This document shows, in pieces, positions 50,746 to 55,064 of a DNA stretch of 64,000 bases (its first letter is position 1; each line of letters starts with the position of its first letter). The position numbers were made by a program, and so were the translations under genes. The stretch lies in IMG/VR virus record IMGVR_UViG_3300009155_000035, one strand, 5' to 3'. Under the pieces are notes generated by a model that was not told the origin of the DNA, did no database searches, and saw only the letters and a list, made by a program, of their open reading frames with translations. The stretch is from a virus. Lineage: Duplodnaviria > Caudoviricetes.

Positions 50746-50817
50746 TTATCGATTTGCGATATACATTGTGATTTCGAAACCGTAGCGCATTTCAGTTGCT
50801 TCTGGCTTTGTCCACAT
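50746..50817 (-). CDS. pqqA: Pyrroloquinoline quinone precursor peptide PqqA (23 aa, not in ORF track)
   Basis: [23 protein letters not shown] with ExxxY core; AAGGAG SD; -10 TATAAT at 50863-50868; terminator downstream. Confidence 0.92.
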
Positions 50818-50909: not shown

Positions 50910-50987
50910 TTATATCGTTTTTCTACGTATCTCTGTTCGGTAATACTGTTTAGCAGTAAGAATAACAGCACCAATAAACGGAAGCAA
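50910..50987 (-). CDS. Candidate riboswitch-controlled small peptide (25 aa, TTG start)
   Basis: MLPFIGAVILTAKQYYRTEIRRKTI after AAAGGA; SD spacing is short; alternative ORF 50882-51016. Confidence 0.3.
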   Translation of the reverse strand: MLPFIGAVILTAKQYYRTEIRRKTI

Positions 50988-51003
50988 TTTTCCTTTAAAA
51001 AGT

Positions 51004-51089
51004 TATGGTCTCGCATCTTTGTCTGTGTGCCGGACTTGCGTCGTGTTGACGGCACACAGAACCCTTTTACAGGTTAGCTACTCCCCATG
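51004..51089 (-). ncRNA. yybP-ykoY (Mn2+-sensing) riboswitch
   Basis: AUGG-GGAGUAGC ... CUGUGUGCC-GUCAACAC-GAC(GCAA)GUC-C-GGCACACAG ... GCGAGA-CCAU matches the known P1/L1/P3/L3 architecture. Confidence 0.88.
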
Positions 51090-51097
51090 AATATTTA

Positions 51098-51616
51098 TTA
51101 GCTATTCAATACCTTGGCAACACTATTCATAACGCTGGCAATACGACCAATGTCACGAAGCTGTTCTACTGTATAGCCTTCCTTCTTGAGTGTTTCGTAA
51201 TGTGCCTTAACACAGAAATGGCACTTGCCAACAATGCTTGCGGCCAAGCTATAGGCTTCAAATCGAGCTTTAGTTGTGCCGCCATGTGACGCAATAGCAT
51301 TCATACGTAACTGAGCGGGTAGTCCTTTTAGAGCAGGGTCGTCTGCCATTTCAACGTAAGGATACCATACGTTGTTTTGAGCCATGATGCTGGCGGCAGT
51401 AAGGGCGGCATCGGCTTCTTTGCGATCTGCAATCTGGCTATGGACCCATGTCCAAAGCTTGCTGTTGCCTGTGGCAAAAGCCGCCGCCAATGCCACAGCT
51501 TCGGCTTCATCCACAGGCAATGCACTGCGTTTGATCACAGCGTCAATATTGAGCTTGGTATCCTTTGCGTATTCGGGAATACTGGATTCTTTTAATGCGT
51601 CTACCCATTGGGTCAT
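51098..51616 (-). CDS. ahpD: Alkyl hydroperoxide reductase AhpD
   Basis: IPEYAKDTKLN, MAQNNVWY, GKCHFCVKAH. Confidence 0.93.
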   Translation of the reverse strand: MTQWVDALKESSIPEYAKDTKLNIDAVIKRSALPVDEAEAVALAAAFATGNSKLWTWVHSQIADRKEADAALTAASIMAQNNVWYPYVEMADDPALKGLPAQLRMNAIASHGGTTKARFEAYSLAASIVGKCHFCVKAHYETLKKEGYTVEQLRDIGRIASVMNSVAKVLNS

Positions 51617-53046
51617 TTTGTTTCTCCTAAAATAATATTGTGTTTTGCAAATTCATCCACCAGCCAGGGAAAAGTTTTTGGCCAGCTGGTTGATCTACGT
51701 CGATCTAACTCGTTAAGGTACAAATACAAGTTGAATATCTCCTTGACGTTTGGATTACTGCTACAAGACTGTTTGGCAATGCCTTCAAGATACTGACGAC
51801 TAGACAAGTCCTCGGGAGTTGATGTTGGCTTCAGTGCCAGGGCTTTTTCAAAATCTTCTTTGAATATAGCACCAAACATATCAATTGACTGATTGTTTCT
51901 TCCTTGCACAGAATTTTGATAGTGATGAACTCTACGAGTTTTATTCCAGTGATTTATTTTATCTATCAATGTTGGCAAAGTTTTTATGGTAAGCGGTGTT
52001 ACTGTGGAACCAATGATCAAATTGATCCAGTGCTGTGATAACAAATATTCAAAATTTCTTTCCCATACTGTTAGGTTCAAGGGAAAGCGAACATACTCTT
52101 GCTCGGGACCCCAACAATCCAAACTGGCAGTTACTTCAAATTCTCTGAGATGGTTGGTGTCGATTAGTTTCTTCACACGTTCGACTATCTTCACAAGATG
52201 TGGTAATCGTGTGTTTAAATTTGTGAATATTTGCAATTTGAGTTCTGGTGCGGGGTGCTGTTCAAATAAATCCAAGCACTGTTCAAACTCGTCTTGGTAT
52301 AACGGCTCACCACCCAGCACGTTAAACACTGTTAGATTATGTACATTTTTTTTCAGCCACTCAAACAACTTGTTTTTATTGTCTTTGAGGTCTGGGCTCT
52401 TCTTAAAGCTCGGCGATAAGAAACTGGTTTCAAGACTTTCATGTACATACAAACCGTGTTTTTTGTTTTCGGCGTCCCACAGGCTTGAATACAATGGACC
52501 ACAATACATGCATTTTAAGTTGCAGGTATTGTCAAAATAAACTTCAAGTATCCTTGGAGTTACATGCACAGCATGCAGATCAATATCCAGCTCAGGTGGT
52601 GCATGCATTCCGGGGAAGTCTAAGTTGGTGATTCGATCACTGGCACCGCCAACAGCTTCAATGTCACGACAGTATTCACATCCGCCGCCAGGCCACTTCC
52701 CTTCAAGCATTTTTGTTCTTGCTTGCATTTTTTCTGGGGTGTTGTGAAAATCAAATGTGTCGGGATCAAACTTGCTGCCAAATGTTCTATGGCAACTTGA
52801 AGTCATGCCAGTGGTTAAAAACAAAGTGCTCCAGTTCCATTTTAGTTGACACGCTGTAGCAGTTTTAATCGGAAAAATTTTATGTGATAGTTTGGATGAC
52901 TTTTTAAACAAGCCCGGGACATAACCAAACCGAGTCTTGCACTCTTGTTGAATAAGTTCGGGTAAAAATCTAAACTGCTCCTCGGACTCACAGTCGGGCC
53001 AGGACTGATCTCGAATCTCTTGATAAAACTCTTTCCAAGAAGACAT
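51613..53046 (-). CDS. Radical SAM protein with N-terminal twitch-like Cys module
   Basis: TACQLKW..SSCH..CEYC; CNLKCMYC; GGEP. Confidence 0.85.
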   Translation of the reverse strand: MSSWKEFYQEIRDQSWPDCESEEQFRFLPELIQQECKTRFGYVPGLFKKSSKLSHKIFPIKTATACQLKWNWSTLFLTTGMTSSCHRTFGSKFDPDTFDFHNTPEKMQARTKMLEGKWPGGGCEYCRDIEAVGGASDRITNLDFPGMHAPPELDIDLHAVHVTPRILEVYFDNTCNLKCMYCGPLYSSLWDAENKKHGLYVHESLETSFLSPSFKKSPDLKDNKNKLFEWLKKNVHNLTVFNVLGGEPLYQDEFEQCLDLFEQHPAPELKLQIFTNLNTRLPHLVKIVERVKKLIDTNHLREFEVTASLDCWGPEQEYVRFPLNLTVWERNFEYLLSQHWINLIIGSTVTPLTIKTLPTLIDKINHWNKTRRVHHYQNSVQGRNNQSIDMFGAIFKEDFEKALALKPTSTPEDLSSRQYLEGIAKQSCSSNPNVKEIFNLYLYLNELDRRRSTSWPKTFPWLVDEFAKHNIILGETK

Positions 53047-53069
53047 TGATTTTTACCCTTTTGATCTAA

Positions 53070-53609
53070 TTAAAGTGTTTCGCCGCCAACTGTACGATTG
53101 CAAGCACACAGTTCACCTGTTTGCAGTGCATCCAATACACGCAGAGTTTCTTCTGGGCTACGACCAACGTTGAGGTTGTTAACAGTAACGTGCTGAATTT
53201 CGTTGTTAGGATCAACAATGAATGTTGCACGAAGTGCGGCACCTGCAGGAGCATAGAGCACACCTAGTTGTTCAATCAAGCTGAGTTCACCGCGCTGTGT
53301 ATCAGCAAACTGGTGATGTGTGATCTTTTGTAGATCGGGGTGTGCTTTTTGCCATGCTACCTTGCAGAACTCGTTGTCTGTGCTACCCGTTAGCAATACT
53401 GCATCACGGTCGGCAAAATCTTGTGCCAACTTGTCATACGCCACAATTTCAGTGGGGCAAACAAATGTAAAATCTTTTGGATAGTAAACAATTACTTTCC
53501 ACTTGCCTTCAAACGAGCGTTCAGTAATGGTGTAAAAAGCATCTTCTGGTTGCCCAGGACGCACGCCAGTGATGGCAAAAGTGGTGAGTTGGTCGCCTAC
53601 AGTTTTCAT
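53070..53609 (-). CDS. ahpC: Peroxiredoxin AhpC
   Basis: YYPKDFTFVCPTEI, RATFIVD, ELCACN. Confidence 0.95.
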   Translation of the reverse strand: MKTVGDQLTTFAITGVRPGQPEDAFYTITERSFEGKWKVIVYYPKDFTFVCPTEIVAYDKLAQDFADRDAVLLTGSTDNEFCKVAWQKAHPDLQKITHHQFADTQRGELSLIEQLGVLYAPAGAALRATFIVDPNNEIQHVTVNNLNVGRSPEETLRVLDALQTGELCACNRTVGGETL

Positions 53610-53662
53610 TTTTGATTTCCTTTAAGTTAAAAATTGATACTCAGTGTTTGTACTGAGGGTTT

Positions 53663-53714
53663 ATTGTACACATATATATCAATGAAATCAAGCAAAATCT
53701 ATGAATTTGCTTGA
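53663..53714 (-). promoter_or_regulatory. ahpC promoter with overlapping inverted repeat
   Basis: TTGATT-17-TACAAT on minus strand; TCAAGCAAA-N9-TTTGCTTGA (53688-53714) overlaps the -35. Confidence 0.6.
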
Positions 53715-53742
53715 AATTATTTTTATGACGATAATAGACAAA

Positions 53743-53768
53743 ATAAAAGGCGCACCGGCGCCTTTTAT
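53743..53768 (-). terminator. Terminator after the porin gene
   Basis: ATAAAAGGCGC-accg-GCGCCTTTTAT. Confidence 0.8.
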
Positions 53769-53786
53769 CATAAGTGCAATCTAATT

Positions 53787-55064
53787 TTAGAATGCTTTGC
53801 GCATGCCAATTGCAAATGCGTCAATGGCTTGTCCCTTGGCAGGAGCACCTGCTGTCATACCAAAGATTGGGCCCATATTGGCGTTACCTTGGTTGTCAGC
53901 ACGACTATACAATGCAAACACTGCAAACGTTTTAGAAAAATTGTATTGACCATACACAGAAGTCAAGTTAACTTTGTTTGCGTCAACTGTTTTGTCCACA
54001 ACTGCTGTGTACTGTGCGGCAACACGAGTTCGATCATTGACTTTATAACTGACACCAAGAGCATTGGCATCAAAATCATTGCCATACGCAGTACCAACTG
54101 GAGCATTGCGTGCGGCAGTGATAATACCGCTAGCAGAAATGCTCATTGGAGTCGTCATGCAGTTACCACCAGATTTGGTTTCACTGCACTGGCCCCATCG
54201 AGCACCAAAGTAACCATACTTGAATGTAAGGTCTTTATATGTGTATGCGGCACCGGCCATTTGGGTTTTTAGCTGGGTAGCACCGGTGTTGTCGTTAACA
54301 TCTTGTACGCCAACTAGTGCTGAGAATGGACCTTTTTCATATTCGACCACAACGTTGCGTTGACCTTGTTGTTCGAATTCGTTGCTGGCAGTTGGACCAT
54401 TCTGGTTCATTCCCCACATGGCATGAACAGTGACACCGTTGTAAGTTGGTGACTTCCAGCCAATACCGTTGCTGTAGTTGTTGGGACCACCGTTGATACC
54501 GGACACATTCAAGTCTGGATTAAGTGGAGCAACTACACCACTCAACATACGATTACCGGATGAACCGTGTCCGGTCAATGTACCGTTGACTGCACCAATA
54601 CCACCAGAGGCAATACCAAGCGCATCCAAACGTGTGGACATGTAAAATTGTGGAGTCAATTGACGTCCAAGTGTAAAGTTACCAACTGTTGGTGTGATTA
54701 TTTCCAAGTTGGCTTTGCGATAAAACAACGAGGTAGAACCACCCGAAATAGCATAACCATTACCAGGGTTGGTACCACCAACACCGCTTAACGACGAGCT
54801 AACATTACCACTGTTGGTATTAACTGCGGTTTCCAAGTTAACTGATGCTTTGTACCCACCAGCAATGTCGTGTGTTCCACGGAAGCCCAATGAGCTGTTG
54901 CCTAAAACAGAACTGGACATATTAAATGCGTTGAGTCCCGGGGCATTGTGTGCAACACCGGCAATATTCAAATTGCCATAAATTTGAAGTGGTGCTTCTT
55001 GCGACTGCGCCTGCGCAGTAGAGAACCCCGCGGCAATAAGCAGAGGTAGAAGTAGTTTTTTCAT
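53787..55064 (-). CDS. Gram-negative outer-membrane porin
   Basis: Signal peptide, LQIYG, SSLGFRGTHDI, LGRQ, C-terminal GMRKAF. Confidence 0.88.
   Translation of the reverse strand: MKKLLLPLLIAAGFSTAQAQSQEAPLQIYGNLNIAGVAHNAPGLNAFNMSSSVLGNSSLGFRGTHDIAGGYKASVNLETAVNTNSGNVSSSLSGVGGTNPGNGYAISGGSTSLFYRKANLEIITPTVGNFTLGRQLTPQFYMSTRLDALGIASGGIGAVNGTLTGHGSSGNRMLSGVVAPLNPDLNVSGINGGPNNYSNGIGWKSPTYNGVTVHAMWGMNQNGPTASNEFEQQGQRNVVVEYEKGPFSALVGVQDVNDNTGATQLKTQMAGAAYTYKDLTFKYGYFGARWGQCSETKSGGNCMTTPMSISASGIITAARNAPVGTAYGNDFDANALGVSYKVNDRTRVAAQYTAVVDKTVDANKVNLTSVYGQYNFSKTFAVFALYSRADNQGNANMGPIFGMTAGAPAKGQAIDAFAIGMRKAF

Follow-up and report, generated by a model that had tools for sequence, protein, structure and literature searches.

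A P4-less phage relative of the yybP-ykoY Mn2+ riboswitch, probably orphaned by deletion of terC

The window analyzed in this study, a 64,000-nucleotide stretch of a virus of the class Caudoviricetes (IMG/VR record IMGVR_UViG_3300009155_000035), carries on its minus strand (51088..51005) a compact yybP-ykoY-type aptamer of 84 nt, organized around a three-way junction. Comparison with its relatives indicates that this RNA is very probably a compact yybP-ykoY homologue of a phage terC cassette, orphaned in the window by the deletion of terC. Classed accordingly, it is a phage-borne variant, new and without P4, within a known riboswitch class, and in the window it is an orphan.

Results

The aptamer in the window

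The elements of the aptamer and of the box that precedes it are given below; all of them were read from the sequence, except the linker, which was placed by alignments A1 and A2.

51092..51097, minus strand: TAAATA box, similar to the -10 element of a T4-type late promoter, directly 3' of the ahpD stop, with a distance of 5 nt to the aptamer's GGGG
51088-51085 with 51008-51005, minus strand: P1, AUGG paired with CCAU
51084-51079 with 51012-51009, minus strand: L1, GGAGUA with GAGA
51078-51077 with 51014-51013, minus strand: P1.1, GC with GC
51075-51071 with 51064-51060, minus strand: P2
51059-51050 with 51032-51023, minus strand: P3, 10 bp
51049-51043, minus strand: L3 bulge, UCAACAC
51042-51033, minus strand: P3.1, GAC-GCAA-GUC, with the GCAA cap
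51022-51015, minus strand: single-stranded linker of 8 nt, ACAAAGAU, replacing P4

On the minus strand, the TAAATA after the ahpD stop, the AUGG/CCAU pairing of P1, the helices P2 and P3, and the GAC-GCAA-GUC hairpin all lie exactly where an earlier note on this DNA, made from its letters, had located them. The same note had described P4 as reduced; it is absent instead, and the 8-nt linker ACAAAGAU occupies its place. With R2, a covariance model made from 34 relatives from which the window was left out, the aptamer scores 88.0 bits (E ~1e-18) over its full length, and it was the sole match of the covariance-model search in the 64-kb window. Its fold energy is by itself only mildly unusual (z = -1.97). 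A U-U mismatch in P1.1 was considered as a sign of decay, which was ruled out, since an allele with intact terC carries an identical aptamer.

Relatives and covariation

When IMG/VR was scanned with a degenerate pattern, 88 stretches were retrieved, among them 16 clear homologues, and a scan of metagenomes added about 19; the relatives found are 34 aptamers in viral and metagenome contigs. A strict pattern built from the window's own sequence gave 0 matches in IMG/VR. In alignment A1, which holds the window and 15 viral homologues (16 sequences, the larger alignment having 34), 95% of the cells are paired, as against 25-42% when the partners are slid by 1-3 columns. Compensatory changes, with both sides altered, occur at 15 of the 25 base pairs of A1, and its observed covariation score was reached by none of 500 shuffles. 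In P3, 8 of the 11 aligned pairs show such changes, and P1.1 covaries as well, being CG in 8 and UA in 8 of the 16 sequences. No variation was seen among the 34 sequences in the L1 nucleotides (GGGGAGUAG ... RAGACC) or in the L3 core, CGUCAA. The phage form measures 79-84 nt, and its P1, of only 2-4 bp, begins about at the predicted transcript start.

Eight phage-type members (L107, L117, L165, L181, L214, L282, L284, and L291) form a subgroup of 89-95 nt with a longer P1.1 and a possible mini-hairpin of 3-4 bp at the position of P4. On a 785-kb contig (L202, locus GC 0.31), a phage-type aptamer and a terC start are present without a TAAATA box. Furthermore, a large family of bacterial P4-less Mn-type aptamers of 80-90 nt was noticed (L179, L186, L194, L196, L200, L206-L211, L215, L216, and many more), in which ..ACUCCGAU precedes the aptamer, a terminator hairpin re-using AGACCAU follows it, and R2 scores 50-64 bits. 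The P4-less architecture is not phage-specific.

Membership in the Mn2+ riboswitch class

The search that the earlier note had proposed as a check, cmsearch with the Rfam model RF00080 (currently 177 positions, gathering cut-off 45 bits), left the window unmatched both at the gathering score and at E<=10, in slices of 801 and 126 nt, and the best Rfam match in these slices was SSRC10, at 15.2 bits, covering the P3/L3 part only. Likewise, RF00080 found no match at the gathering score in the loci of 13 IMG/VR relatives, nor for L204 and L244 at E<=0.01. This silence is weak evidence against membership, because the model under-scores the validated E. coli mntP switch, which receives 41.6 bits against the cut-off of 45, as well as compact bacterial aptamers, which receive 24-35 bits or no match; it performs well only for high-GC examples with a four-way junction (48-70 bits). 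In runs on L169 (2462-2558) and L177-L255, it placed the 3' half of L1/P1 (..GGCAAGACCAU..) inside a long loop. RF00080 misses most compact P4-less aptamers, an annotation blind spot of Rfam, and this form is common in bacterial metagenome contigs too.

Covariance model R1, made from phage RNAs, matches E. coli mntP over its full length (36.3 bits, E = 4e-7, 638 kb searched) and the Paenibacillus terC leader (36.9 bits), and in its alignment the P4 hairpin of both appears as an insertion at the point of the linker. Model R2 gives 35.7 bits to E. coli mntP, 34.6 to the Paenibacillus terC leader, and 50-64 to compact bacterial aptamers. The L1 of the RF00080 class, which has GGGGAGUAG in its 5' strand and RAGAC in its 3' strand and which P1 and P1.1 close, is present in the window, and so is the L3 bulge with the conserved UCAA adenines on P3, which aligns to the Rfam consensus CGUCAACAUAC. 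The class-defining four-way junction, with P4 under P3, is absent from the window. Instead of P4, the window and 26 of the 34 relatives have a linker of 6-9 nt, and 8 of the 34 have a mini-hairpin of at most 3-4 bp.

Judged by these sequence comparisons, the RNA of the window is a true relative of the yybP-ykoY aptamer, and it is filed as a variant rather than as a plain member because the four-way junction feature fails. The Mn2+ riboswitch architecture that the earlier note proposed is upheld as far as a yybP-ykoY-type aptamer in a large phage is concerned (88.0 bits with R2, and covariation), and it falls short in P4 with its four-way junction and in the RF00080 match. From the conserved core and the mutually exclusive hairpins described below, we infer that the phage-type RNA would bind Mn2+ selectively and turn expression on. 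No description of a P4-less form of the class was found in the searchable literature.

The terC cassette in intact phages

The riboswitch class occupies 5' leaders of genes for Mn2+ export or homeostasis, among them those for TerC, MntP, and P-type ATPases. In all 16 IMG/VR homologues, which lie on viral contigs, a TerC gene is located 3' of the aptamer, and these downstream genes match Pfam TerC (PF03741) with scores of 1.6e-45 to 6.8e-53. Two kinds of TerC follow the aptamer, one of 223-233 aa (MELLSLQ...) and one of 313-318 aa (MEMLLSA...). In L106, L107, and L117, TerC starts 80-160 nt past the aptamer, with a short ORF between them.

One copy was found per carrier contig checked, in a five-contig positive control that includes a 343-kb record rated 99% complete, and the genes flanking the cassette vary among carriers. 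At 80 IMG/VR loci with close AhpD homologues no aptamer was found, and five large AhpD-bearing contigs (178-316 kb) had no RF00080 or R2 match anywhere; consequently, the cassette is accessory and not a part of the ahpD locus. Single copies, absence in AhpD relatives, and differing neighbors together point to the aptamer and terC as a mobile accessory cassette. In a search for donors, the closest bacterial TerC homologues (72-75% identity, in MAG contigs of freshwater Hyphomicrobiales and Gammaproteobacteria) had no upstream aptamer. In the interpretation preferred here, some uncultivated freshwater jumbo phages carry this self-contained cassette, made up of the late-promoter-like TAAATA box, the aptamer, the phage terC, and between these two a short linker with the ribosome-binding site.

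Related phage contigs carry tRNAs and a tmRNA of the betaproteobacterial type, permuted and in two pieces (L106, 5059-5383; L121, 8802-9225). Based on this tmRNA and on the resemblance of the pqqA stretch of the window to Methylophilales phages, it is plausible that the host of the window phage is a freshwater betaproteobacterium, possibly a methylotrophic one.

Expression platform

In the intact leaders, CCAU (the 3' half of P1) and 2-9 more bases are complementary to bases ending in the start-codon AUGG, and the extension of this CCAU...AUGG pairing covaries (UUUUA/UAAAA, AA/UU, AAUAU/AUAUU). Over 32 leaders, the hairpin has on average 6.5 contiguous bp, or 9.0 when one defect is allowed, against 4.7 and 5.9 with shuffled linkers. 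The start-codon hairpin, which also engages the ribosome-binding purines, was the minimum-free-energy state in 8 of 8 leaders folded, and P1 and the start-codon pairing were shown to be mutually exclusive.

With the aptamer folded, the 3' strand of P1, consisting of CCAU and a few more bases, would pair with the 5' strand of P1; in the alternative state, it would pair with the start-codon region, burying the ribosome-binding site and the AUG. Binding of Mn2+ would lock P1, free the start codon, and turn TerC translation on, by analogy with E. coli mntP and alx, in which the Mn2+-docked aptamer has been reported to permit translation start (PMC12153347). The platform fits a predicted Mn2+-ON translational switch.

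The 5' strand of L1, GGGGAGUAG, is also complementary to terC codons 3-5 (..UUACUCUC.. or ..CUACUUUCC..) in L105 (3830-3950), L113, L150, and L089. These pairs are present in the minimum-free-energy folds and are unconserved in L165 and in the 317-aa TerC type; they may represent a further anti-aptamer pairing, or they may result from the conserved N-terminus MELLS.

The TAAATA box as a candidate late promoter

T4-type late promoters have a box of this kind, TATAAATA, a few bases before the start site, where it is read by a gp55-type factor; the box of the window is AATAAATA. TAAATA stands 5-7 nt upstream of 32 distinct phage-type aptamers, which sit in different gene contexts, and upstream of none of about 95 other pattern matches. 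Boxes like it also stand ahead of several genes of the window, including tail genes. Regarding genes for late factors (gp55, gp33, and the gp45 clamp), only clamp-loader-like PHROG matches and one protein similar to T4-like cyanophages were noticed, and RNA-library contigs reach upstream of the TAAATA box. It is a reasonable prediction from the sequence that a late promoter initiates transcripts at the foot of P1. Thus, of the earlier claim that the riboswitch lies behind a late promoter, the position directly behind TAAATA is conserved in 32 phage-type relatives, and the promoter itself stands as a candidate.

Elsewhere in the window, TAAATA boxes end only 3-9 nt before the ATG of an ORF (plus strand, 4738, 23362, 35501, 36178, 39250, and 44566; minus strand, 44563 and 28259); if these are promoters, their mRNAs would be near-leaderless, and otherwise the boxes would have another role there. 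An inverted repeat was also observed around TAAATA, with GUAUUUA a few bases before (C/U)UAAAUAC (L089, L093, L095, L117, L121, and L150).

Deletion of terC in the window

Around the aptamer, the window contains the following features.

51098..51616, minus strand: AhpD-like gene (carboxymuconolactone decarboxylase family; Pfam CMD 2.9e-13), with its TAA stop at 51100-51098
50988..51004, minus strand: remains of the expression platform, a U-run linker and the ribosome-binding site AAAGGA (comparison with L105, L113, L165, and L204)
50910..50987, minus strand: terC stump of 25 codons, a UUG-started "micro-ORF" (last 25-27 residues of the 224-aa phage TerC)
50863..50890, minus strand: sigma-70-like promoter between the stump and pqqA, GTGAAA, 16 nt spacer, TATAAT (consensus scan, 10/12)
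50746..50817, minus strand: pqqA, PQQ precursor peptide of 23 aa (Pfam PqqA 1.3e-8)
50742-50721, minus strand: intrinsic terminator after pqqA (terminator scan)

The closest viral relative, L105, has the order AhpD, TAAATA, aptamer, and a TerC of 224 aa, and the order in the window is the same up to the deletion. According to blastn, the window is without L105 3928-4545 (~618 bp), since the alignment of the two runs to the ribosome-binding site and resumes only over the last 57 nt of terC. The only TerC match of the window in tblastn, at 50999..50919, covers residues 197-223 of the L105 TerC with 78% identity. What lies 3' of the window aptamer is only the last 25-27 codons of terC, versus a TerC gene in 16 of 16 IMG/VR relatives; Pfam gave no match for the 25-aa stump, and the full TerC membrane domain (PF03741) is absent. 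The junction is located directly after AAAGGAAAAUU, at 50986/50985, and there the leader (..AAAGGAAAAUU..) meets a similar terC-internal ..GAAAAU... A short microhomology, GAAAAU(U), is thereby suggested as the site of the deletion.

In the sample that is the probable source of the window, a Logan contig of 299 nt crosses the junction without any difference, and a lake metatranscriptome contains a contig of 151 nt with the same deletion junction as the window. In turn, a 178-nt contig from a DNase-treated metatranscriptome (X3) equals the window from 51108 to 50986, except for one extra A, departs from it precisely at position 50986, and then reads into the intact start of a terC, MEILSLQFLW. 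These junction contigs, together with the intact allele of X3 and its matching aptamer, indicate that the deletion is real and recent and that both alleles circulate. The deletion allele was found in at least two samples, and the aptamer of the window is undamaged.

According to the proposed course of events, the ~618-bp deletion took codons 1 to ~200 of terC plus the AUGG partner, and because this partner went with terC, both the helix of the OFF state and the regulated gene were lost. The aptamer, intact and with nothing to switch, would then be an orphan relic transcribed between ahpD and pqqA. A residual function of the window aptamer is possible. The proposal of the earlier note that the phage senses Mn2+ late in infection is unlikely to apply to the window genome, in which terC and the start-codon half of the platform are deleted; from their sequences, it is a reasonable reading for the relatives that keep terC.

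Gene neighborhood

The minus-strand order in the window is porin, AhpC, a 477-aa radical SAM protein, the AhpD-like CMD, the RNA, the 25-codon ORF, PqqA, and the terminator. The porin (Gram-negative, Porin_4, 1.5e-28), AhpC, the 477-aa radical SAM protein, and AhpD run in one direction (51613-55064, minus strand). AhpD homologues are present in at least 590 IMG/VR contigs. The terminator scan identified no terminator between the aptamer and pqqA, and the pqqA stretch with its leader is conserved in L059 and L062, both without aptamer and stump. The pqqA of the phage is stand-alone, with pqqB-E not adjacent, and its stretch matches unannotated DNA of the Methylophilales phages MEP401 and MEP402 with 82-84% identity. 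The window phage also encodes ribonucleotide reductase, DNA ligase, and tail-like proteins; no tRNA genes were found in the window.

Discussion

Several other explanations of these data were weighed. That the RNA resembles the class by chance, or that the terC deletion is a mis-assembly, has next to no probability in our judgment: the missing Rfam match and a fold z of only -1.97 would suit chance, but the 88 bits come from a model never shown the window and the covariation is extensive, while an independent 299-nt Logan contig crosses the junction unchanged and a second sample has the same junction. We also consider it unlikely that the P4-less phage RNA, though homologous to the Mn2+ riboswitch, is a sensor of another divalent ion or, like alx, of pH, or a constitutive structured leader. 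In every structure solved, the leg bearing L3 includes P4 (PMC12153347), the loss of P4 could shift affinity, and the Rfam model fails to recognize the P4-less variant; however, the metal-site nucleotides of L1 and L3 do not vary among 34 sequences, bacterial metagenome contigs commonly contain P4-less aptamers with terminator platforms, and the regulated gene, TerC, is a standard output of Mn2+ riboswitches (PMC10550928, PMC13598126).

Two further explanations would leave the aptamer of the window in use. It could still switch the 25-codon UUG micro-ORF (50987..50910), whose product would be a Mn2+-responsive small membrane or basic peptide, and indeed this frame is open, follows AAAGGA, encodes a hydrophobic and then basic stretch, and belongs to a deletion allele seen in at least two samples. 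Against this, the micro-ORF is the C-terminal tail of TerC (78% identity, residues 197-223), with the ancestral stop at its end; an AUG is missing, and only 3-4 nt separate its UUG from the GGA of the ribosome-binding site; the AUGG partner needed for the OFF state is deleted; and a micro-ORF in place of terC occurs in 0 of 34 relatives. As a new Mn-regulated peptide it was rejected, being a terC stump without AUG and with the AUGG partner lost, and we rate the whole explanation as very unlikely. Quite unlikely, too, is a rewiring of the retained aptamer to pqqA or to the ahpC-rSAM-ahpD transcript, for example by Mn2+-dependent stability or read-through. The absence of a terminator between the aptamer and pqqA, with one terminator after pqqA, would allow it, and RNA-library contigs cover the aptamer and extend past TAAATA, so an ahpD read-through RNA may exist; nevertheless, these contigs could stem from carried-over DNA, pqqA begins 190 nt further 3' and has its own sigma-70-like promoter and leader, this leader is kept in L059 and L062, which have no aptamer, and there is no alternative pairing between the aptamer and the ribosome-binding site of pqqA. 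The interpretation that we prefer for the window is an aptamer of a terC cassette orphaned by deletion. For the freshwater giant phages as a group, we lean slightly toward a cassette that is mobile and brings its own late promoter, and whose P4-less Mn2+ riboswitch, behind this promoter, would turn on the phage TerC, the window holding a freshly decayed copy.

In comparison with RF00080 members (E. coli mntP, L. lactis yoaB, X. oryzae, and B. subtilis yybP/ykoY), the phage form shares L1, P1.1, P2, P3/L3 UCAA, and P3.1, and the association with TerC is common to both; its predicted translational ON logic is like that of E. coli mntP (PMC12153347). It differs from these members in being without P4, with a three-way junction and an 8-nt purine-rich linker instead, in its length of 79-84 nt and its P1 of 2-4 bp, and in being carried by phages behind TAAATA. 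A three-way junction compatible with the Mn2+ core has been described in alx, which acts translationally (PMC12153347; bioRxiv 2026.02.18.706685), but alx is without P2 and keeps P4, whereas the phage form keeps P2 and is without P4. Moreover, alx-like switches have been reported only in Enterobacterales (PMC12153347; bioRxiv 2026.02.18.706685). The phage form and the compact P4-less bacterial aptamers of metagenome contigs have one set of helices, with P4 missing from both; TAAATA is absent from the bacterial ones, most of which have a terminator hairpin (transcriptional), whereas the phage ones have a hairpin that sequesters the start codon.

Phage riboswitches reported to date are c-di-GMP-I in C. 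difficile prophages (PMC5473149) and glutamine riboswitches (glnA RNA) in cyanophages, pelagiphages, and the methylophage Melnitz (PMC9004378). A survey of riboswitch distribution has stated that phages rarely use metabolite or ion riboswitches, with c-di-GMP-I and glutamine as the only examples (PMC5473149). The RNA described here is like them a cis-acting phage sensor of a phage gene, and it belongs to another class, for an inorganic ion. In the searchable literature, which is incomplete, no Mn2+ riboswitch was found to have been reported for phages. The TerC proteins of cultured phages (Pseudomonas Otagovirus, Bacillus CP-51/JL, Rhizobium RHph_I1_18, and Acinetobacter vB_AciJM_313) share only 26-39% identity with those of the cassette, and their terC genes start 1-80 nt behind the preceding gene. 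In three of the cultured phages with terC, a search with R1 found no aptamer, and in the other three the gaps of 1-17 nt leave no room for one.

In brief, for the window, the "micro-ORF" is read as a terC stump and the aptamer as a relic, not as an active Mn2+ circuit tied to ahpD or pqqA, and the interest lies mainly in the phage aptamer family as a whole. At least 34 distinct Mn2+-type aptamers, of the phage type with the box, a covarying platform, and terC, offer a testable case of metal-ion sensing by phages. If this holds true, it would be the first inorganic-ion riboswitch class used by lytic phages, which would read the Mn2+ of the host cell late in infection.
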